DNA of 62,779 bases, filler included, from Bdellovibrionota bacterium (GTDB lineage: Bacteria > Bdellovibrionota > Bdellovibrionia > Bdellovibrionales > JAEYZS01), in the NCBI GenBank assembly GCA_963169515.1. It is 5 parts of 5 records of this genome, joined end to end, with 100 filler letters (N's around TTAATTAATTAA, not from the genome) between each part and the next. Parts side by side here need not be neighbours in the genome. Positions count along the whole stretch, not along the records: positions 1 to 17,852 come from CAUJEF010000032.1; 4 more parts are not named here. The stretch is one strand, 5' to 3'. Shown here in pieces: positions 184 through 17,952 of the stretch. Made by a program: the position numbers and the translations under genes. The first letter of the stretch is position 1; each line of letters begins with the position of its first letter. Under the pieces are notes generated by a model that was given only the letters and a program-made list of their open reading frames with translations, did no database searches and had not been told where the DNA came from.

Positions 184-1560
184 ATGAACAAAAACCTAAT
201 TTTGAACATCAGCATTTTTTGTGCACTTATTTTGGTTTTGGCGACAGGCTTTTCAAAAAGGGAAGAAATAAAAAAATATAAAGAAGGCGAGTTTATCGTA
301 AAAATAAATTCGAAAAAATTTGGACGTATTGAAAGCTCCGAGAAATTCATCAGAAATATTTTAGAAGCGCACCTTGGATTTGCTATTAAATCCATAACCC
401 CATTTGTAACGGACGCGCAGTTTGCCGTCGTTAGAATTGATGAACGACAAAACATTATGGACGCGATTTCCATTTTAAATAGCTCTGATGACTTCAGCTA
501 TGCGCAGCCCAATTTCCTATATACATTACAAGACGAATCAACCGGGGGCGCGCCAAATGACGCAGATTTTGCCCAAGCCTGGGGACTAAAAAACATAGGT
601 CAAGCAATTAACAATCTCAAGGGCAAAGAGGGCGCCGATATTGATGTTATGCCGCTTTGGGAAAAAGGAATAGTTGGAAAAAGTGAGATTATTGTTGGCG
701 TCGTAGATACGGGAATCGATGGGACACACCCGGACCTTGTTGATAATTTATTTGTAAATGTGGGCGAGTCTGGCGAGCTGGCAACAAATGGCATAGATGA
801 CGATAAAAACGGATTTGTCGACGACGTGAATGGGTGGAATTTTTTTGCTAAAACAAACAATCCGTTTGATGGACATTCCCACGGGACACACACATCCGGC
901 ACCATTGGCGCCGTCGGAAACAACGGGACAGGCGTTCCTGGTGTGAACTGGAAGGTACGGCTATTGCCGATTAAAATTTTTTCTGACAGTGGCGGCTATG
1001 CCGGCGATGACCAAGTGATTGAAGGCATTAACTACGCAGTTAAAATGGGGGCAAAAGTTCTCAGCAATAGCTGGGGCGGGGGTGGCTATTCGAAAGCTAT
1101 GTTTGAAGCAATTCAAAACGCACAGAAAGCGGGTGTGTTGTTTGTTGCGGCCGCGGGTAACTACACGGACGACAATGACCAGTATTCGTTCTATCCGGCG
1201 GGGTATGATTTGGACAATGTGATTGCCGTTGCTGCAACGACAAACACAGACGATATTGCTTCATATTCAAATTATGGCGCGAAATCTGTCCACGTCGCCG
1301 CCCCTGGCAGTAGCGTGTACAGCACAGTTCCGGCAGGAAAATATGCGTTTAAGAGCGGAACGTCTATGGCGACGCCACACGTTTCTGGTATCGCAGCGCT
1401 GCTGCTTTCTGAGTTTCCAAACACAACGCCCGCAAAGATCAGGGAAACTCTAATCAAATCGAGCGTAGAAGTTCCATCGCTAAAAGACAAGTGTGTTGCC
1501 AATGGTCGCGTTAGTGCGGCAAATGCATACGCGGCACTTGCTAGTGAACAGAAAAACTAA
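184..1560 (+). CDS. Secreted subtilisin-like serine protease (S8) with N-terminal prodomain
   Basis: Catalytic motifs VVDTG, HGTHTSG and GTSMATPHVSG; oxyanion AAGN; DDDKNGFVDD Ca loop; signal peptide. ATG 184 follows a GGGGGG SD (ORF track starts at 163). Confidence 0.93.
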   Translation: MNKNLILNISIFCALILVLATGFSKREEIKKYKEGEFIVKINSKKFGRIESSEKFIRNILEAHLGFAIKSITPFVTDAQFAVVRIDERQNIMDAISILNSSDDFSYAQPNFLYTLQDESTGGAPNDADFAQAWGLKNIGQAINNLKGKEGADIDVMPLWEKGIVGKSEIIVGVVDTGIDGTHPDLVDNLFVNVGESGELATNGIDDDKNGFVDDVNGWNFFAKTNNPFDGHSHGTHTSGTIGAVGNNGTGVPGVNWKVRLLPIKIFSDSGGYAGDDQVIEGINYAVKMGAKVLSNSWGGGGYSKAMFEAIQNAQKAGVLFVAAAGNYTDDNDQYSFYPAGYDLDNVIAVAATTNTDDIASYSNYGAKSVHVAAPGSSVYSTVPAGKYAFKSGTSMATPHVSGIAALLLSEFPNTTPAKIRETLIKSSVEVPSLKDKCVANGRVSAANAYAALASEQKN

Positions 1561-2396
1561 GTTCCGATTGGGTGCCAGACCGTTTTGAATTCTACGAAAT
1601 CGGTAATGGCTTTTAGAGAATCAACATTTTCATATCTGGGCACAACACGCTTCATGTTGGATGTGCCCAATTTTTTTATCTCATAAAGAATTTCTGTGTC
1701 TTCATTCTGACAACTGACAGACCTAATTTCCATGTGGCTACCGATATGTGGATACAGTTCTTTCAAATGACCCGTAAGCAGGTTAATCGCACCCTTCGGA
1801 AGATCTGACGTTGCGAATACCTCGGCCAAGGGTTGTAGTATTGCTGGGCATTCTGGGCCCAACACAACCACAAGGCTATTTCCGCTGGCAGAAACGGACG
1901 CGATATTTGAAACCAGGCGGCCAAAGTCAAAATGGGATTCACAAATCAGGGCAACAATTCCGACAGGGTCTGGCGTTGTGAAGCTGTGATGAGGTCCCGC
2001 CACCGGGTTTACCGCGGCAGACATTTGCTGAAATTTATCTGCAAAGCCAGCGTAGTAAATAAAAGCGTCAATGGCTTCGTCGACTTGTTTATTGGCCTCT
2101 TTATCTGAAATACCCAGGGTATCTTTTAAAAGACCGACGAATTCGTGTCGCTTTCCCTCAGCCATTTCGGCCATTCGATAAAGTATTTGTGCGCGATTGT
2201 ATGCGGTCATGAAGCCCCAGGATTTCTGACCGACTTCCGCAGCTTCAACTGCGGCACGCAGATCTTTTCGGGACGCTTGCGCAATATTTGCATATATTTT
2301 TTCAGAATCATGAAAGTTTATTGGAAATGATCGTCCAGACTCAGATCTTGGAAATTCCCCGCCAATAAATAATTTTATAGTCTTTAAAACTTTCAT
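1557..2396 (-). CDS. Short non-catalytic aldehyde dehydrogenase-family subunit (ALDH16 C-terminal-domain-like)
   Basis: ALDH N-terminal/NAD-fold motifs (LFIGGEFPRSESGR, RAQILYRMAE, DLPKGAINLLTG, KTVWHP) but no ELGG or catalytic Cys segment; ATGA-coupled to the upstream ALDH. Confidence 0.8.
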   Translation of the reverse strand: MKVLKTIKLFIGGEFPRSESGRSFPINFHDSEKIYANIAQASRKDLRAAVEAAEVGQKSWGFMTAYNRAQILYRMAEMAEGKRHEFVGLLKDTLGISDKEANKQVDEAIDAFIYYAGFADKFQQMSAAVNPVAGPHHSFTTPDPVGIVALICESHFDFGRLVSNIASVSASGNSLVVVLGPECPAILQPLAEVFATSDLPKGAINLLTGHLKELYPHIGSHMEIRSVSCQNEDTEILYEIKKLGTSNMKRVVPRYENVDSLKAITDFVEFKTVWHPIGT

Positions 2397-3898
2397 TTGA
2401 TCTCCAAGTATGCAGATAATCCGTGAATTCCGCCTTCGCGGCCAAATCCACTTTCATAGTAGCCACCAAACGGAGCTGTCGGATCAAATTTATTATAGGT
2501 GTTTGCCCACACGACGCCAGCCTTCAGTTTTGAGGCGACCTCATGAACTTTAGATCCCTTTTCAGACCAAATCCCGGCGGCGAGTCCGTAGGGAGTGTCA
2601 TTTGCCTTTGTAATGGCTTCTTGTGGCGTCCTAAATGTTTGAACAGATAAAACGGGGCCAAAAACTTCTACGCGACTAATGGTTGCGGCAGCAGAAACAT
2701 TGTTAAAAAAGCATGGCTTATGAAAATAGCCCTTGCTTGGGAGCCTTGTATTTGGTTCAAAGAAATCGCCCTCAGACTTCCCAACCTCAACGAGTTCCTT
2801 GATTTTTTCCAATTGCTCAAACGAGTTTATGGCGCCGATGTCGGTGTTTTTGTCGAGCGGATCGCCAATTCGAAGTTGCTGCATGCGACGCTTTAATTTT
2901 TTAATGAATACTTCAGATATAGATTCTTCGACCAAAGCTCTTGAGCCTGCACAGCACACGTGCCCTTGATTAAAAAAGATTCCTTGTACGACACCCTCGA
3001 CGGCTTGGTCGAGTGCTGCGTCTTCGAATACAATATTTGCCGATTTTCCGCCAAGCTCTAGAGTGATACGTTTATTTGTCCCTGCTATTGCAGAGGCAAT
3101 CTTTTTTCCCACCTCGGTTGATCCAGTGAAGGCAACTTTGTTCACATCGCCGTGGGAAACAAGGCTTGCCCCCGTCGCACCTGCGCCAGTGATGATGTTC
3201 ACAACTCCGTCCGGGAGCTCAGCTTGCTGAAATATCTCACACAACAGCAAGGCCGTTAGAGGGGTTGTCTCGGCGGGTTTTAAAACAACAGTGTTTCCCG
3301 TCGCTAAGGACGGTGCAATTTTCCATGCGGCCATCAATAGCGGAAAATTCCATGGTATAACCTGTCCCGCGACACCTAAGGCTGAAATTTTTGCCCCAGG
3401 AAATGCGTAATTTAATTTATCCGTCCAGCCGGCATGATAGAAAAAGTGTGCAGCGGCCAATGGGATATCTACATCCCTAGATTCTTTAATAGGTTTTCCG
3501 TTATCCAAGCTTTCCAGGACGGCAAATTCGCGGGCGCGCTCTTGTAGAATGCGTGCAATTCTGTATAAATAACGTCCGCGGTCCTTGGCAGAAATTTTTG
3601 ACCATGTTTTATCGTAAGCATTGCGTGCCGCCTTGACAGCAAGGTCAACATCGTTTGCGCCCGCTTCTGCGACTTCCGACAGGGGTTCGCCTGTGCTGGG
3701 ATTTATGGTTTTAAAATATTTCCCTGCAATTGGTTTTGTGAAGCGACCATTAATAAACAGTTCATATCGAGGTTTGATTTTAACAATAGACTTCGATTCC
3801 GGAGCGGGTGAATATTCGTATTTGAATCCTGATTTGGTTTCAACAACAGTCCCATTTTGGGGAATTTTTGTTTTCTTTTTAGCAGTTGATGTTTCCAA
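2393..3898 (-). CDS. NAD-dependent aldehyde dehydrogenase (acetaldehyde, deoC-linked)
   Basis: IPWNFPL, KPAE, FTGSTEVG, LELGGKS, FFNQGHVCCAGSR (catalytic Cys), EVFGP, PFGG. TTG 3898 follows a GGGGGG SD (alternative GTG 3913). Confidence 0.93.
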   Translation of the reverse strand: METSTAKKKTKIPQNGTVVETKSGFKYEYSPAPESKSIVKIKPRYELFINGRFTKPIAGKYFKTINPSTGEPLSEVAEAGANDVDLAVKAARNAYDKTWSKISAKDRGRYLYRIARILQERAREFAVLESLDNGKPIKESRDVDIPLAAAHFFYHAGWTDKLNYAFPGAKISALGVAGQVIPWNFPLLMAAWKIAPSLATGNTVVLKPAETTPLTALLLCEIFQQAELPDGVVNIITGAGATGASLVSHGDVNKVAFTGSTEVGKKIASAIAGTNKRITLELGGKSANIVFEDAALDQAVEGVVQGIFFNQGHVCCAGSRALVEESISEVFIKKLKRRMQQLRIGDPLDKNTDIGAINSFEQLEKIKELVEVGKSEGDFFEPNTRLPSKGYFHKPCFFNNVSAAATISRVEVFGPVLSVQTFRTPQEAITKANDTPYGLAAGIWSEKGSKVHEVASKLKAGVVWANTYNKFDPTAPFGGYYESGFGREGGIHGLSAYLEIK

Positions 3899-3916
3899 GG
3901 CTCGTCCCCCCACAGG

Positions 3917-4885
3917 TTAGTCCAATGAAAAATAGTGATTGTCGAAGTATCGACCTGTGTATTGTTTCATAATCTGTCTCAGTAAATCATTTAACAGAAC
4001 GCTTGCGCCGAAGCGAAACCATTGTGGCGTAAGCCATTCATTACCAAGAGTCTCTTTTACCATTACCAAATACTGGATCGCCTGTTTTGCAGTTCGAATA
4101 CCTCCGGCGGGCTTCATGCCAACCATACGTCCACGGTCGTCATAAAAATCTTGAATCGCTTGAAGCATAACGAGGGTATTGGCAAGCGTTGCGTTTTCGG
4201 TGGCCTTCCCCGTCGATGTTTTAATAAAATCAGCACCGGCTTCCATCGAAAGCCACGAGGCAAATCGAATTTTATCATAGGTTTGCAGTTCTCCGGTTTC
4301 AAGAATTACTTTCAAATGAGCTTCATCGGAACAGATATCTTTAACTGCTACAACTTCATCAAACACAGTTTGGAAATCGCCGCGCAGAAAGGCGTCGCGG
4401 TTAATCACCATATCAATTTCAGTTGCGCCAAGCTTTATTGCGCGCTTTACGTCCTCAAGCTTTAAGTCTGCGGGCAGCTGTCCCGATGGAAATGCGGTAG
4501 CAACAGAGGCCAGCTCAACGCTTGTTCCACGAAGGTGCTTTGCGGCCGTGGCAATTTGGCTTGGATAAACGCAGACAGCGGCAACAGAGGGTATTGGACG
4601 AATTTTTTTTCCAATCTCTTTTTCGATTTGTTCTACCATTGCTGGCGGCATGGGCCGCAAGGCCTTGCCGCAGAGCTGGCGAACTTTCCCAGGCGTGTCT
4701 GAGCCCTCAAGCGTTGTGAGGTCCACCATACTTAATGCCAAATACAGAGCGTCCAATTTGCTTTCTGTTTTAATGCTTCGTTTGGTAAACGAATTGGCGC
4801 GCTCAGTTGTGCCGACGCGATCAACGGGATAATGGGGAATTGTAATTCTGCCGCCCCCTGGGACTTTGATTTGTGCTGCTGGCAT
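3917..4885 (-). CDS. deoC: Deoxyribose-phosphate aldolase
   Basis: DLTTL, AVCVYP, GATEIDMVI, LKVILETGEL, GADFIKTSTGK, KPAGGIR, RFGAS motifs. Confidence 0.95.
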   Translation of the reverse strand: MPAAQIKVPGGGRITIPHYPVDRVGTTERANSFTKRSIKTESKLDALYLALSMVDLTTLEGSDTPGKVRQLCGKALRPMPPAMVEQIEKEIGKKIRPIPSVAAVCVYPSQIATAAKHLRGTSVELASVATAFPSGQLPADLKLEDVKRAIKLGATEIDMVINRDAFLRGDFQTVFDEVVAVKDICSDEAHLKVILETGELQTYDKIRFASWLSMEAGADFIKTSTGKATENATLANTLVMLQAIQDFYDDRGRMVGMKPAGGIRTAKQAIQYLVMVKETLGNEWLTPQWFRFGASVLLNDLLRQIMKQYTGRYFDNHYFSLD

Positions 4886-6608: not shown

Positions 6609-7409
6609 ATGATCACAGTTTTTTTTGCAATACTTATATCATTGAGCGCGAATGCCTACGAGGGGCCTGTGTCGTCGGCAATGGGCGGCTCTGGGCGGTC
6701 CTCGATTATCCCGGGCGAGACCACTCTGAATCCGGCGGCAATTGCCCATATTCGAGGTTATCACGTAACCGCATCTTATCAGGACTACACTTTCGAACCT
6801 ACGGGGAAGGCAGCAATTTTGCGTGCGTCTTTTGTTGATAGCAATGAAGACAATATGGTACCGGCAGCTTTTACCTATGGAAAAAACGCTGAGGATCAGG
6901 AATTTCACCTGGGAGTTTCAAAATTTATATTTAGATCCTTGGCACTGGGAATTGAAATTGAAAGATATATCTCTGATCCAAAGGTGGGCTATCGGCACAT
7001 TGAAAATGATATTTCAATTGGGGCACTGTACGCCATAACGACGGATTGGGGAGTCGGGCTTGTTGGTCGCAATTTATTGCGCACGAATTTGGCGGCTTTG
7101 GATCAATCTGTGGCGATCGCTTCGAGCTATGCGTTTGGTAAAATCGCTCGCGTTCAATTTGACTATTTACTCCCCATGCAAAACAACGATCAAAAAAAAT
7201 CCATCATTATGATGGGCGTAGAGAGCCACTTTGTGCATGAGTTTCCACTTCGAACTGGCTTCCGCCGGGATAACCTAAGGAATACAACCTTTTGGACTGC
7301 CGGCGCGGGCTGGGTGGGGCCGAAGATTGCTCTTAACTATGGCTTTGAAAAGAACGTCAATTCGAGCCGGGAGGCGGGCCACTCTATTGACGTTAGGGTC
7401 TATTTTTAG
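6609..7409 (+). CDS. Outer-membrane beta-barrel protein (PorV/FadL-like N-terminal motif)
   Basis: Signal peptide (ANA), SSAMGG..NPAA motif, alternating beta strands, C-terminal VRVYF. Confidence 0.7.
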   Translation: MITVFFAILISLSANAYEGPVSSAMGGSGRSSIIPGETTLNPAAIAHIRGYHVTASYQDYTFEPTGKAAILRASFVDSNEDNMVPAAFTYGKNAEDQEFHLGVSKFIFRSLALGIEIERYISDPKVGYRHIENDISIGALYAITTDWGVGLVGRNLLRTNLAALDQSVAIASSYAFGKIARVQFDYLLPMQNNDQKKSIIMMGVESHFVHEFPLRTGFRRDNLRNTTFWTAGAGWVGPKIALNYGFEKNVNSSREAGHSIDVRVYF

Positions 7410-7420
7410 TAGAAACTGCA

Positions 7421-7442
7421 CTTGCCGTAGGTAAACGGCGAG
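7421..7442 (+). terminator. Stem-loop after the OMP gene (no U-tract)
   Basis: CTTGCCGT-aggtaa-ACGGCGAG, 8 bp including one G-U pair. Confidence 0.3.
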
Positions 7443-7462
7443 CTGACCATGGGAGATAACGT

Positions 7463-7591
7463 ATGGCATTACCACACAGCCGAACCACTGTAATTCGACA
7501 AAGAAAACAAAAAAGCCGTGGGAAAAAAAGAAAAGTAAAATTGAGAACCGAAGGTTCTACAAAATCTCAAAAAGAACTTTTTCAAGACTAA
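7463..7591 (+). CDS. Uncalled 42-aa highly basic small protein (MALPHSRTTVIRQRKQKSRGKKRKVKLRTEGSTKSQKELFQD)
   Basis: Hand translation: ATG 7463 to TAA 7591; GGGAG SD at 7451-7455; 14 of 42 residues are K/R; fills the intergenic gap and overlaps the tonB stop by 4 nt. Confidence 0.7.
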   Translation: MALPHSRTTVIRQRKQKSRGKKRKVKLRTEGSTKSQKELFQD

Positions 7592-8430
7592 TTCGATCTT
7601 CTCAACTGGCCCGGAGCGGTCGTTGCGGGCTGGGTCAGGCGAAAAATAACGGGCTGTTCATACAGACCTTCGATTCCAGGAAAATATTTCCACTTTCGAT
7701 ATGTTTTAACCGCTTCGTTATCTAAAAACGGAAAGCCAGAGCTTTTTGCAACGGCAACATCTTTTACCAGACCTGCCGAACTAATATTAACGTACAAAAC
7801 AACGGTGCCTTCTTGCCTGCGCAAACGTGACCAATATGGATACGTCGGTTTTGGATTTCCTGCCATGGGCTTTGCTGCCGACGCAGGCATGACGGCGCCA
7901 GTTGGCGTTCCGTACGCGGCAATTTGGGCGGCATTTTGCCCAGGCAATTCAACGGGCGCAACTTGTTCTGCGGACGGAGCCGATGGGGCGGACGTTTCAA
8001 TAGGCGCTTCTTCCTGGGTGGAATCTTCGGGGTTTATTTCAGGCGTTGGTTCTGGAACTGTTTCTGGAACTACTTCTTCGGTTTTTTCTATTTCTGTCGG
8101 CACGTCGCCTGCTTGATCGACAATATCTGATTTGGAAACCTCTGGCGGCGGAAGCGGTGGCTGTGGTGGGGGGACGGTCTTTGGTCTTTTTGGTTTTGGC
8201 TCTGATTTTGCGACCACAGGAATTTTTTCTTTTTCAACGACGTCAATTTCGGTTGTCTTTTGCTCGTCCCCTCGAGGCATTTGATAATTGATATCATAAT
8301 CAACCACTTCGCCTTGTGGAAGCGCGCGATCGAGGGCTAATTTTACAATAAAAAGCCCGAGCCCAACGTGGATAGCAACTGATACTGCAAATGCCCAAGA
8401 AAATCTTCGTTTTTCGCCTTTATGTCTCAT
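7588..8430 (-). CDS. tonB: TonB energy transducer
   Basis: TM helix with SxxxH (SVAIH), Pro/Glu-rich spacer, TonB_C motifs YP..R..QEGTV and SSGFPFLD. Confidence 0.88.
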   Translation of the reverse strand: MRHKGEKRRFSWAFAVSVAIHVGLGLFIVKLALDRALPQGEVVDYDINYQMPRGDEQKTTEIDVVEKEKIPVVAKSEPKPKRPKTVPPPQPPLPPPEVSKSDIVDQAGDVPTEIEKTEEVVPETVPEPTPEINPEDSTQEEAPIETSAPSAPSAEQVAPVELPGQNAAQIAAYGTPTGAVMPASAAKPMAGNPKPTYPYWSRLRRQEGTVVLYVNISSAGLVKDVAVAKSSGFPFLDNEAVKTYRKWKYFPGIEGLYEQPVIFRLTQPATTAPGQLRRSN

Positions 8431-9121
8431 ATTTTGAAATCGCTAAAATTTTTGTTTGATCTATAGGATTATCGGTAATTTCTGTTTTCACTTTGAAAAT
8501 TTCCATAAGCTTTGGATGTTTAAGAATTGTTTCGGTCGAGCCGTCCAAGACCACGCCATTTTGATACAAGACCCAGGTCTGAGAAGTTTTAAAACGCAAG
8601 CACCAGCTTAAGTTGTGGTTTGAAATCACAAAGTGACGTCCTTTTTGAATTTGATTTTGAATAAGGTCTGCAACACGCAAGGAATAATTCCAGTCAAGGT
8701 AAGTAAGCGGCTCATCAAGCAACACAAGGCTTGCCGGATTTGATAAAACAGAAGTCAGCAAAACCCGTTGCAGCTCACCCGACGATAAGTTTTCAATTCG
8801 TCGATTCATTAATTTTTTTGTTCCAAGAACATGTAATACATCATCGCTGTGCCATTTTGATTTATTCCCGTCATACAGCTCAAAAATATCCTGTCCCGTT
8901 ACGCCCGGTTGAATTGTATGTTGGGCCGGCAAGTAAGCACAAGGCTTCGTGTTGACTCGGCCTCCTTTTGTTGGAAGAACGCCAACCAAAGTCTTCATAA
9001 GCGTGGTTTTACCTGTGCCGTTGGGCCCAATCATAAACAATAATGGCGAAGATTGGTTCAGACGCTCAATTTTTAACTTAAAAGAATCATAGCCACATTC
9101 GATATCAATCAGCTGTAGCAT
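8420..9121 (-). CDS. ABC transporter ATPase (BtuD/FecE-like)
   Basis: GPNGTGKTT, LSSGELQR, LLDEP, H-loop. Confidence 0.88.
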   Translation of the reverse strand: MLQLIDIECGYDSFKLKIERLNQSSPLLFMIGPNGTGKTTLMKTLVGVLPTKGGRVNTKPCAYLPAQHTIQPGVTGQDIFELYDGNKSKWHSDDVLHVLGTKKLMNRRIENLSSGELQRVLLTSVLSNPASLVLLDEPLTYLDWNYSLRVADLIQNQIQKGRHFVISNHNLSWCLRFKTSQTWVLYQNGVVLDGSTETILKHPKLMEIFKVKTEITDNPIDQTKILAISKYET

Positions 9122-10091
9122 ATCGAGTCCTCCGAACCATGAGCATCACCAAAATCGGTGCGCCGATAAGTGCCATTATGCTTCCCGATGGCAGTTCTGT
9201 TTCATGACTAAGAATTCTGGCTAAAATATCGGAAACTAAAAACAAACAGGCGCCGATCAATGAAGAAAGCGTCAGTGTAAGCGAATGTCTGCGGGTGCCC
9301 AAGATTAAATAGCTCAAGTGTGGTGAAACCAATCCCACAAAACCAATCAGGCCAGCGATTGCAACACTTCCCGAAGTCAAAACACAAACAGAAACAATGA
9401 CGGTACGTTTGATCAGATTTAGATTTGTACCAAGGCTTGCGGCAATGTCGTCACCCAAAAGCAATCGATCCATATTTTTTTCTTGAAAGCTAAAATATAA
9501 ATAAACACAAAGAAAAATTAAAAATAAGGCTGGCCAACCGACGTCACGCGTGGTTCCCACCTGGCCCATCATCCAATAAACAGCAGTTTGAATTTTTGTT
9601 GGATCAAGCAGTGAAACCAAAAGGGTTACGACCGCTCCACAAAAAAGTGACACCATAATTCCAGCAAGAATCAGGGAACGGCTTTTCATTAACATTTTGC
9701 TGCCCGAGAAATTTAAAATAACTATGGTTACAGCAAAACAGCCGACGAGCGCACCCACGGGGACTCCGATAGCTCCTAGGCCAAAAAAAATTGCAATCAC
9801 TGCGCCAAGGGCGGCCCCTCCAGAGATTCCCAATGTGTAGGGTTCTGCGAGGGGATTGTCCAAAACAGTTTGTAACAAAACACCGGATAAACCGAGCGAC
9901 ATACCAATCGTGATTAAAGCCATGGTGCGTGGTAAACGAAGATCTGAAATGATATATTTTACGGATGGATCAAGGTTTTGATTTGAAAAGTAGGCTAAAA
10001 GATCCTCAAAGCCAACAGCGCTGGATCCCACAGCAAGTGATATTACAGACAAAAGCAAAACAATTGATAAAGCTAGCCAAAGTGTTTTCAA
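9105..10091 (-). CDS. FecCD/BtuC-family ABC permease
   Basis: LRLPR, NPLAEPYTLGISGGA, GLIGFVGLVSPH, LIGAP motifs. Confidence 0.92.
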   Translation of the reverse strand: MKTLWLALSIVLLLSVISLAVGSSAVGFEDLLAYFSNQNLDPSVKYIISDLRLPRTMALITIGMSLGLSGVLLQTVLDNPLAEPYTLGISGGAALGAVIAIFFGLGAIGVPVGALVGCFAVTIVILNFSGSKMLMKSRSLILAGIMVSLFCGAVVTLLVSLLDPTKIQTAVYWMMGQVGTTRDVGWPALFLIFLCVYLYFSFQEKNMDRLLLGDDIAASLGTNLNLIKRTVIVSVCVLTSGSVAIAGLIGFVGLVSPHLSYLILGTRRHSLTLTLSSLIGACLFLVSDILARILSHETELPSGSIMALIGAPILVMLMVRRTRYATAD

Positions 10092-10101
10092 AGTAAACTT
10101 G

Positions 10102-10881
10102 TTATAAACGAGAGCGAACCTGTTGGCAAAAGCTTAAAATTCCGCCAGGCAAACGCGGTCCTAATCGGCTTAATACGTTCGCGTCACCGATAAAGACCGG
10201 TATATTCTTTGATAGGGGGTTCGCTTCCCAGAAGTTTTCAATATTCAGGATCAATGTCTTATTGGGGACATTCCCAACAAAAAGCACAATTTGCGGTTTA
10301 GCTTTGCCAAGGGATTCAATTTGTATTGTCTTATATCCGGGTGTCGTGTCAAAAGCATTTTTAACTCCACATCGCTCAAAACTTTGCGAAATAAAGGTAT
10401 CGCCTCCGGCAAGATAAATTGGGTCGTGGTCGACTTGAATGATCGCGGTTTTACCAATATTTATTTTTTTTACCTTGTCCCAATTTTCGTTCCAGTTTTT
10501 TATTAATGTATTTGCACGCGTCTGTTTATTAAAAAGCCCCCCAAGCTCGGTCAAAATATTTACATAGTCACCAAGGTTTCTCGCGGCATAGGAAAACAGT
10601 GGCGTTTTTGCCTTTTTAAGGCTCGCGACAATTTCTGGGTCGCCTTCGATAAAGGCAAGGACATGGGTGGGCTTTAATTCAATTATTTTTTCAAGGCTTG
10701 GTTTTGAGTAACTGCCAATGGTTTTAATTTTTTTTGCGGCGTCTGGAAAATTTGAAAAGGTCGTTGTGCCGACGATCCTATTTCCCAAATCCAGATCAAA
10801 TAAGATTTCGGTTAGCGTTGGATTCAGGCTTACTATTCGATCATCCGCAAATAAAAAGGACAGGAACAATAAAAAAATCAT
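10102..10881 (-). CDS. Helical-backbone periplasmic binding protein (BtuF-like)
   Basis: RIVSLNPTLTEILFDL, PSLEKIIELKP, SRLGPRL motifs. Confidence 0.85.
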   Translation of the reverse strand: MIFLLFLSFLFADDRIVSLNPTLTEILFDLDLGNRIVGTTTFSNFPDAAKKIKTIGSYSKPSLEKIIELKPTHVLAFIEGDPEIVASLKKAKTPLFSYAARNLGDYVNILTELGGLFNKQTRANTLIKNWNENWDKVKKINIGKTAIIQVDHDPIYLAGGDTFISQSFERCGVKNAFDTTPGYKTIQIESLGKAKPQIVLFVGNVPNKTLILNIENFWEANPLSKNIPVFIGDANVLSRLGPRLPGGILSFCQQVRSRL

Positions 10882-12656
10882 TAAAAAAACCTTTCAAGGC
10901 TGGTGATGAATTGTCGGCCGGGTTCAGGATAACCACTTGTAAAAGTGCGGCTGTTGTCAAAAATATTTTGAACGCTAATCTTTGCCGTCCAATCAGATAA
11001 ACCTATTGTTCTGAAATTTAAATCAAACACATCCCAGGCGCCGGTCGCTTTTGTCTGGGTCAACATATAGCGGTCCCAGTGAGTTTGTACGACTTCAGCT
11101 ATGACGGGACCCAGTTGCGCACCGAAAACCAAACTAAATTTTTGCTTTGGCATTAGGGTCAGAGTGATATCGGGCTGAATATGGGAATAAGAAATTTTTG
11201 TCGACCAGATTTGGTAATTGAGCCCAACGGAAAGATCGGCCCCCCAAAAATTCACATCACTTGCGTTAAAATAACTGCCGGGGCTTCCGCCATCGTATTG
11301 GATAAAATCCCGATATTGGGTTGAATAGACGGCGGCCTCAAGCCCCAAACGTTGCAATAAGTTTGCAGAGCTTAAGCTGCCTTTTTTTCCAAAACCGATT
11401 TCTATTTGATCTGACTTTTCAGGCTTTAGGCTTGGGTTTCCATTAAAAAGAGGGCTTTGAAAAAATTTTTGACTAAAAGATGGATTTCTATATCCTTCAG
11501 AATAAGAAATCCAAGTCTTCATTCCTGGGCGATCTTGTCCTGCAATTAAGGATTTGATCAAAAGGCCTTCGCTTGGCAGATATCGAATTCCAGGAGAAAG
11601 AAAATAATTTTGATCCGGAGAATATTTAAAAATAATGCCGGGCTCGACGCGATTATTAACCAGACGCTTTGTCGTATTGGGTTTATTTTCAAACTCGTCG
11701 TGCATGTAATCTATAAAAAACTCTGCTGAGTGCTGATCTGAAAACGCATTTTTATAAGAAACAGATTCCGCGATTTGACTGCTGTACCATCGCGTTTTCC
11801 CGCTCGCGTCCGTGTTGAAAAACTCATTGAATATCCCTGTCGAACGAAATGATAACAGACCCCGTGCGGAAACATTTTTTTCTAATAACAACGATCCCAG
11901 CAAAGATGTGCGGTCGTAATGGGTCGGATAAGGTAAATCAACGGGCCCCGGCGTTCCCCCAAAACTTTGGCCGTAAATCAAGGTCTCTTTAACAGTGTAA
12001 CTTGAAACCTTGTGCTGACCTGTGATTGTAAAGCGCTGTAAATGGAAGCCATTGGGTTCGCGTTCTTGTTCCTGGCTATTATATTTGTAAGGGAAGTCGC
12101 CATCAATTGAATTTGAAAAACCGGTTATTTGAAGCTTGTGATTTTCAGACTTCAAAATCGGATGGGCGCCATAAATAGATTTTCGACCAAAGCTTCCCAA
12201 CCCGCCGCGAACAACGGCGCGATCATAGGTGTGCGGTATAATGTTGATTGCGCCACCGATAGCGTCTGACCCATAAAGAACCGAAGAGGCCCCCTTCAAA
12301 ACAAAGGTAGAATGTGTTGTTTCCTGTGGAATTAAGAGTGAGCTTGCACCCAATCCATCCATCAAATTAAGCGGAGTCCCGTTGTATAAAAGCAGGGTGC
12401 GTCCATACTCTGACGAACCACGAATGGAAAAATTGGGGGACCCGCCGCTTAGATCGCCGCGGGAGACGACCCCAGAAAATTTGCTTATGCTATCGTACAG
12501 AGATTGGTCGGCAATGGTGTAATCAGAGTAAACCGTTTCGATTGGCCAGGCGTTGGCGCGCTCACTGAAAATGGTTAAGGGTTCGGCCTCAACGATTTCA
12601 ACAGGAAGAACCTCAACGGCGCCAGAAAACTGCATCAGAAATAGCCAGATCAACAT
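10881..12656 (-). CDS. TonB-dependent outer-membrane receptor (BtuB-like)
   Basis: Plug motifs FSIRG and VLKGASSVLYGSDAIGGAINI; NPSLKPEKS; QNIFD..PGR; terminal F. Confidence 0.88.
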   Translation of the reverse strand: MLIWLFLMQFSGAVEVLPVEIVEAEPLTIFSERANAWPIETVYSDYTIADQSLYDSISKFSGVVSRGDLSGGSPNFSIRGSSEYGRTLLLYNGTPLNLMDGLGASSLLIPQETTHSTFVLKGASSVLYGSDAIGGAINIIPHTYDRAVVRGGLGSFGRKSIYGAHPILKSENHKLQITGFSNSIDGDFPYKYNSQEQEREPNGFHLQRFTITGQHKVSSYTVKETLIYGQSFGGTPGPVDLPYPTHYDRTSLLGSLLLEKNVSARGLLSFRSTGIFNEFFNTDASGKTRWYSSQIAESVSYKNAFSDQHSAEFFIDYMHDEFENKPNTTKRLVNNRVEPGIIFKYSPDQNYFLSPGIRYLPSEGLLIKSLIAGQDRPGMKTWISYSEGYRNPSFSQKFFQSPLFNGNPSLKPEKSDQIEIGFGKKGSLSSANLLQRLGLEAAVYSTQYRDFIQYDGGSPGSYFNASDVNFWGADLSVGLNYQIWSTKISYSHIQPDITLTLMPKQKFSLVFGAQLGPVIAEVVQTHWDRYMLTQTKATGAWDVFDLNFRTIGLSDWTAKISVQNIFDNSRTFTSGYPEPGRQFITSLERFF

Positions 12657-17852: not shown

Positions 17853-17952
17853 NNNNNNNNNNNNNNNNNNNNNNNNNNNNNNNNNNNNNNNNNNNNTTAA
17901 TTAATTAANNNNNNNNNNNNNNNNNNNNNNNNNNNNNNNNNNNNNNNNNNNN
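17853..17952. other. Artificial contig linker
   Basis: N44-TTAATTAATTAA-N44; the core gives stops in all six frames. Confidence 0.97.

Follow-up and report, generated by a model that had tools for sequence, protein, structure and literature searches.

We propose that a 42-residue basic protein encoded on a Bdellovibrionota contig represents a new family of lineage-specific structural ribosomal proteins (hereafter, family X). We consider this candidate assignment probable, and a ribosomal role in a wider sense, which includes looser binding to the ribosome, likely. Family X is a translated, widely conserved, unnamed gene family. Its gene is conserved in single copy, and the Bdellovibrio bacteriovorus orthologue, Bd3769, is made and tracks the ribosomal proteins, so that the product is likely an unnamed ribosomal protein. 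The initial annotation, made from the sequence alone, had suggested a hidden ribosome-associated or nucleoid protein. Indirect evidence from translation, time course, transcript level and gene neighbours favors the ribosomal half of that suggestion, and the nucleoid half is weakened by five nucleoid proteins with different profiles. The word "hidden" is apt for the function but not for the annotation, since orthologues are listed as hypothetical in NCBI and UniProt.

The gene lies on contig C32 of the window, by which we mean the whole stretch of DNA analyzed (positions 1–62779; contigs C32, C34, C36, C37 and C50). The contigs are joined by N linkers at 17853, 32813, 41654 and 59750, and adjacency across these linkers is artificial. 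The features around the gene are collected in Table 1.

Table 1 Features at the family X locus, in window coordinates.
Feature	Position	Strand	Evidence or remark
42-aa basic-protein gene (family X)	7463-7591	+	Translation, conservation; orthologue of B. bacteriovorus Bd3769/Q6MGZ6
Shine-Dalgarno GGGAG	7451-7455	+	7 nt 5' of the family X ATG
TonB-family gene	7588-8430	-	Convergent; TonB_C match; stop overlaps family X stop by 4 nt
266-aa outer-membrane beta-barrel-like gene	6609-7409	+	Upstream of family X; weak PorV/PorQ match
Predicted -35 TTGACG	7387-7392	+	Within the last codons of the barrel gene; putative promoter element
Predicted -10 TAGAAA	7410-7415	+	17 nt after the -35, right after the barrel stop; without -7 T; putative promoter element

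The family X stop codon (TAA) occupies 7589–7591, and 53 nt separate the stop of the barrel gene from the family X start. Retranslation returned the same 14 K/R to 3 D/E that had been counted initially (8 K + 6 R versus 1 D + 2 E; pI 11.7; GRAVY -1.51), and the Shine-Dalgarno sequence and the tail-to-tail overlap with tonB were likewise as first described. Among 40 distinct order-level loci, internal stops occurred in none in the family X frame and in 20–37 in each of the other five frames. Conservation at codon positions 1, 2 and 3 was 0.76, 0.80 and 0.54, and a Shine-Dalgarno-like word preceded 57 of 60 homologues. The low dN/dS that the initial annotation had proposed as a check was found, with values of 0.03–0.20 in the seven of ten pairs that had both types of change; pairs were left out where Nd was 0 or the sequences were identical, L013/L025 differing by one synonymous and no non-synonymous change. 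The 42-aa ORF is a real, conserved gene under purifying selection. The TonB gene was not a conserved neighbor across all loci and is considered no part of family X function.

With the single 42-aa query, a match was found in 59 of 61 related genomes, nearly always once and at full length; the cut-off (E<=1) was loose, and later profile searches agreed. A 19-sequence profile retrieved 144 cluster representatives at E<=1e-3, and a profile of 140 family X sequences (A3) matched, in single copy, 158 of the 201 sampled Bdellovibrionota genomes, the single-copy conservation that had also been proposed as a check. Two of these matches were inspected and are not the gene (G072 and G183), and two are weak and uninspected (G127 and G165). 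The positive control, uL30, matched 190 of the same genomes. Outside families f17, f26 and f29, family X was present as a single copy in 155 of 161 sampled genomes of the phylum, and five of the six misses were genomes no more than 78% complete. In family f17 it was missing from 31 of 32 genomes, the one weak match not being the gene, and the A3 profile did not find it in families f26 and f29 of the 201-genome sample. One complete genome (G065, 100%; family f18) had no match, although eight of nine members of its family carry the gene. Oligoflexales also carry family X, and its named orthologues are hypothetical proteins of Bdellovibrio, Halobacteriovorax and Bacteriovorax. In another 100%-complete genome, loss of 1 nt from a stretch of A's has shifted the reading frame of the gene (L289; G207:C1:3639329-3639453), the promoter and Shine-Dalgarno sequence being intact; this may be a sequencing error or a real loss. 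Three f26 genomes of 1.6–1.8 Mb (G095, G102 and G109; L209-L211) have no detectable uL30 or family X, and they are the only ones among the 201 with bS22.

Family X extends to two further phyla. It was present in 66 of 121 genomes of a Myxococcota sample (the phylum of a Polyangia record; 63 at E<1e-4) and, in a Desulfobacterota-type phylum (that of a Syntrophorhabdaceae record), in 16 of the 151 genomes sampled, and was not found in about half of the former sample and most of the latter. Nine of the 16 matches were strong; the other seven, four of them uninspected, have a divergent form that shares the N-terminal half and aligns to A3 with an hhalign probability of 95%. The profile searches thereby recovered the family to which the initial annotation had pointed, one shared by Bdellovibrionota and Myxococcota and marked by a G..RK...G[ST]T core. 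A broader profile was run on 68 genomes, of which 67 had given no convincing match before; it returned five weak, uninspected rows, the best of which (E 9e-4) does not start at Met. Loci L160-L174 were dropped because they matched only the unrelated tail of P0145. No family X match was found in phages or plasmids, and no fusion to longer proteins was found in a search that is weak evidence. Several records titled Enterobacterales or Klebsiella (L071, L072, L077, L102 and others) carry homologues and contexts of Myxococcota type, and their titles are probably wrong.

Among the 140 sequences of A3, M1, S3, R12, G20, R23, K24, G31 and T33 are at least 90% conserved, the core is without gaps, the median net charge is +11, and length ranges from 36 to 67 residues. 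The protein has no hydrophobic core, as noted initially; AlphaFold nonetheless predicts helices from the alignment of 140 (mean pLDDT 88), with one helix at residues 6–18, a break at Gly20, a second helix at 21–30, and then a G-[ST]-T turn and a short helix at 36–40. The predicted fold of family X is a bent helix hinged at the near-invariant Gly20. Searches with the model returned no match in Foldseek and only generic helices in VIA (best Z 3.0). The C-terminal part is lineage-specific. Two subfamilies (L226-L237, L207, L255, L258 and L259) keep the N-terminal 24–28 residues and carry a long helix-like tail in place of the G-[ST]-T-P tail, and in all seven Myxococcota genomes with both bS22 and family X the match covers the N-terminal part only.

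Database searches gave the family no name. Pfam, NCBIfam and PDB made no assignment for any of the 140 members, and 20 further look-ups of family members returned only "hypothetical" or no name. A single-sequence search, of a kind that is nearly blind here, gave one 90%-identical match and no PDB match. PDB profile searches returned chance rows only, and a match to a designed protein in the PDB was rejected as a summed-repeat artefact (best domain E 6.2). In the ESM Atlas only unnamed clusters scored >=0.9; the named neighbors (DUF6800, 0.83; bL32, 0.78–0.79; COX24_C, 0.78) lay below the lead threshold. The literature covered, chiefly open-access, contained no description of family X under its accessions or as Bd3769, nor in connection with ribosome structures of these taxa, lineage-specific ribosomal proteins or Myxococcus small proteins.

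Cryo-EM has revealed a class of small, basic proteins that fill pockets in rRNA (PMC5876184, PMC10618245, 10.64898/2026.07.03.736309), and family X shares several traits of such lineage-specific proteins. It is small and strongly basic with little globular core; it is single-copy, near-universal in its lineage and under purifying selection, with losses in f17, f26 and f29; and, in the proteome data used here, Bd3769 is translated and co-varies with ribosomal proteins, as do RNA polymerase subunits. Judged by sequence profiles, family X belongs to no named ribosomal-protein family tested. According to the portions of PMC5876184 used here, bL37 (NF047428) is likewise tiny, basic, solitary-type and lineage-specific, has an N-terminal helix, and came to light only when cryo-EM showed it in an rRNA pocket; it differs in having 24 residues against 36–67 and in being described as restricted to actinobacteria. 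Three of the 140 members gave faint scores against the bL37 profile (best E 0.28; cut-off 30 bits, which none reached), the bL37 HMM matched the family X gene in none of six genomes at E<=10, and no bL37 sequence was found in the five actinobacterial genomes in which they were sought for a profile-profile test.

The bS22/mS38 proteins (PF08213, COX24_C) resemble family X as short, very basic bent helices, as described in part of PMC10618245, and the COX24_C profile shows no similarity to it (hhalign probability 0.2%). All 158 own-phylum genomes with a family X match lacked bS22, and three f26 genomes without family X had it; in Myxococcota the two were partly complementary (bS22 in 7 of 63 genomes with family X versus 22 of 58 others). 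Strict replacement of bS22 by family X was rejected because both genes co-occur in those seven Myxococcota genomes and in 9 of the 16 Desulfobacterota-type genomes with family X, the anti-correlation being only partial. Like the predicted family X, the Borrelia uL30 N-terminal extension is a bent helix of about 40 residues, lodged in a pocket of the rRNA (PMC10618245), and chloroplast cL38 is described as a short filler of the 23S-5S cleft (10.64898/2026.07.03.736309); family X itself gave no sequence match in PDB or Pfam. Genomes without family X had no long uL30 frame (62–84 aa), and there is therefore no complementarity to back the 23S-5S cleft as its site. The protein bS24 is described as cyanobacterial, the portions of 10.64898/2026.07.03.736309 used here making no mention of Bdellovibrio or Myxococc-. 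Also small, basic and rRNA-embedded are bL34, bTHX and eL29. Family X as bL34 (PF00468) was rejected, with no profile match and a separate true bL34 on contig C67 of its own genome; the bTHX HMM (PF17070) gave nothing over the cut-off, and the eL29 HMM (PF01779) did not match the family X gene in six genomes. Family X may resemble eL29 in residue spacing. The initial statement that the protein matches none of the known tiny basic ribosomal proteins was borne out by negative profile tests against bL34, bTHX, bL37, bS22 and eL29.

The protein encoded at one B. bacteriovorus locus (L018) is letter for letter Q6MGZ6 (Bd3769). With three unique peptides in the life-cycle proteome (PMC12546842, supplementary file 3), Bd3769 is translated, and the absence of translation that the initial annotation had named as counting against its reading does not hold for this orthologue. 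In the rows of that data set used here, its 11-point profile followed the ribosomal-protein median (from 49 of 52 ribosomal-protein rows; r 0.87, rmsd 0.089), lowest in attack phase and peaking at 3 h of growth; 18 of the 49 ribosomal proteins lay further than Bd3769 from their own median, which places it within the ribosomal range. None of 99 control rows, which were contiguous table parts and not a random draw from the 2,195 proteins, reached its r or rmsd (0/68 in parts 67 and 69; 0/31 in part 50), and one, Bd2087, equalled it on step correlation. Bd2087 (Q6MLC5), an uncharacterized protein, has a profile near that of Bd3769 (r 0.94, rmsd 0.089). The 23 nearest of 117 profiles were all those of ribosomal proteins, and bL35 and bL31, added later, lay at rmsd 0.053 and 0.075. 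Of 18 housekeeping proteins chosen by hand, six equalled Bd3769 in r, four in rmsd and RpoA in all three measures, with RpoC, RpoD and EF-G1 passing on rmsd; a ribosomal-like profile marks gene-expression machinery in general. The Bd3769 transcript stood at 1106 RPKM (PMC10627809, supplementary file 9), compared with 311–4090 RPKM for 16 ribosomal-protein genes compared from the RNA sheet, and was 3.9-fold and 20-fold above the adjacent locus tags (286 and 55). It occupied row 3421 of roughly 3,570–3,600 ascending rows, at about the 95th–96th percentile. RNA-seq contigs cover one orthologous locus but give neither level nor strand, and were given no weight here.

The upstream barrel gene appears to carry, within its 3' end, a sigma70-type promoter that drives family X, a candidate housekeeping promoter suggested by its conservation in sequence. 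The [VIL]-D pairs at the -35 position were coded TTGAC in 36 of 36 cases; at other positions of these barrel genes only 3 of 99 such pairs were, and across the own genome 8.4% of 7893. A TA directly followed the barrel stop in 38 of 40 loci, whereas in the own genome this held for 6.3% of 1608 long ORFs; it lay at a spacing from the TTGAC hexamer of exactly 17 nt; by eye, two loci whose barrel stop is shifted by one codon keep the spacing, which brings the arrangement to 39 of 40. The barrel gene was the same-strand upstream neighbor in 40 of 40 order-level loci, a synteny that we attribute to the predicted promoter inside it. A generic promoter scan of 7300–7750 returned 0 sites because it demands a -7 T, which by eye was present in only 4 of 40 predicted -10 hexamers. 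Genome-wide, TTGAC-N18-TA was not enriched (139 occurrences versus 166–239 for other gaps), and the evidence for the promoter is therefore conservation and not the match. Of these 139 matches, 27 precede an ORF led by a Shine-Dalgarno sequence and two of those have TAGAAA, one at the family X gene and one at rplM, which has the same TTGAC-17-TAGAAA arrangement. In Rhodobacter sphaeroides such promoters without the -7 T, including rRNA, rpsM and rpsL promoters, are activated by CarD, as reported in part of PMC7703639. The barrel protein matched PorV/PorQ at E 1.3e-5, below the cut-off, and its homologues mostly end in F/L/W.

In three lineages a neighbor of family X is rplC, efp or relA. At L065, family X lies 18 nt after a lone same-strand rplC and tail-to-tail with efp; at L246 and L248 it lies 25 nt before efp on the same strand; and at Polyangia loci it follows just after relA/spoT, also on the same strand. 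Neighbor identities were confirmed at L065, L246, L123, L125 and L132. About a dozen other contexts are not translation genes (including the barrel gene, metK, surE, coaBC-like, pilB and tatD-like genes), so that the support from neighbors is modest.

Family X might instead be a factor that joins the ribosome only transiently or at less than 1:1, to help assembly or modulate translation; this would account for several of these observations but is unlikely. Two proteome findings count against a structural protein and fit such a factor. The mean log2 abundance of Bd3769 (5.45) was below that of all 49 ribosomal proteins (minimum 6.40) in the PMC12546842 data, where the cause may be a poor yield of tryptic peptides or a sub-stoichiometric protein, and the LFQ sheet of PMC10627809 does not list it, although bL35, bL32, bS20 and bS21 are present there; the relA/spoT and efp neighbors in some lineages and the patchy loss of the gene point the same way. 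Family X, however, shows neither a globular domain nor a motif known from such factors, its transcript is within the ribosomal-protein range, and the growth peak and attack-phase minimum argue against a hibernation factor. That RpoA, RpoC and RpoD also track the ribosomal median, and that a basic helix suits any RNA or DNA binder, would be consistent with a small protein that serves, as subunit or cofactor, some other nucleic-acid machine coupled to growth (RNA polymerase, RNase P, SRP or a tRNA-related complex). This we regard as quite improbable, given that direct comparison with Bd3769 put RpoA (rmsd 0.103, r 0.75) at a greater distance than many of the ribosomal proteins (0.053–0.09) and that no conserved neighborhood with such genes was seen.

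The size and charge of the protein, and the unusual chromatin proteins used by this group of organisms (PMC10627809, in part), also recall a protamine-like protein that condenses the nucleoid, for example the compact attack-phase chromosome. We consider this very improbable. Bd3769 is at its minimum in attack phase and its maximum at 3 h of growth, and in the rows compared it lacks a nucleoid-type abundance over the life cycle, with the histone Bd0055 anti-correlated (r -0.91) and the HU and IHF proteins different (r 0.28–0.67, rmsd 0.12–1.15); position-specific conservation and a fixed core length would suit a defined pocket better than generic coating of DNA. A partnership with the upstream outer-membrane barrel or with TonB has next to no probability. 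The constant barrel neighbor in the order-level loci speaks for it, but this linkage can be accounted for by the promoter motif in the barrel gene, neighbors in other classes and phyla are unrelated, the 42-aa sequence has no signal peptide or hydrophobic segment, and the transcript far exceeds those of the genes adjacent to Bd3769.

As a structural ribosomal protein, family X would place its Gly-hinged bent helix in an rRNA pocket, where it would neutralize and brace rRNA, and its synthesis, from a putative housekeeping promoter of its own, would keep pace with that of the other ribosomal proteins; ribosome binding and a 1:1 stoichiometry are what we infer. The pocket may tentatively be sought in a 50S cleft such as the one at H39-H42/H89/5S, which other lineages fill with unrelated bent-helix proteins, although this is less likely than not; on the 30S, the bS22/eL41 pocket is a rather unlikely site, and there is about an even chance that the site is another one. 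More speculative, and doubtful as a whole, is that Bdellovibrionota, Myxococcota and some Desulfobacterota-type lineages have inherited family X as a core ribosomal protein, whose bent helix evolved independently and fills a functional-center pocket (e.g., the bL37 pocket beside the peptidyl-transferase center), and that it is needed for growth and linked to rRNA synthesis via a CarD-type promoter in the barrel-gene end. The proteins bL37, bS22, bL38 and bS24 were all found by cryo-EM as unexplained density; family X would be a ribosomal protein predicted in advance, with a named gene, Bd3769, in a culturable and genetically tractable predator. Should the proposal hold, three phyla would share a ribosomal protein family new to science, annotation pipelines would have left a single-copy marker as "hypothetical", and a natural presence/absence series would be at hand for asking what such fillers do.

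Two further groups of genes lie on the minus strand of the window. At 7588–12656, tonB is in one run with genes for an ABC ATPase, a permease and a binding protein and with an ORF resembling a TonB-dependent receptor, by eye a cobalamin/iron uptake cluster, tonB being the profile-tested member. At 1557–4885, a deoxyribose-phosphate-aldolase-like ORF is followed by two aldehyde-dehydrogenase-like ORFs, as judged by eye from the translations.
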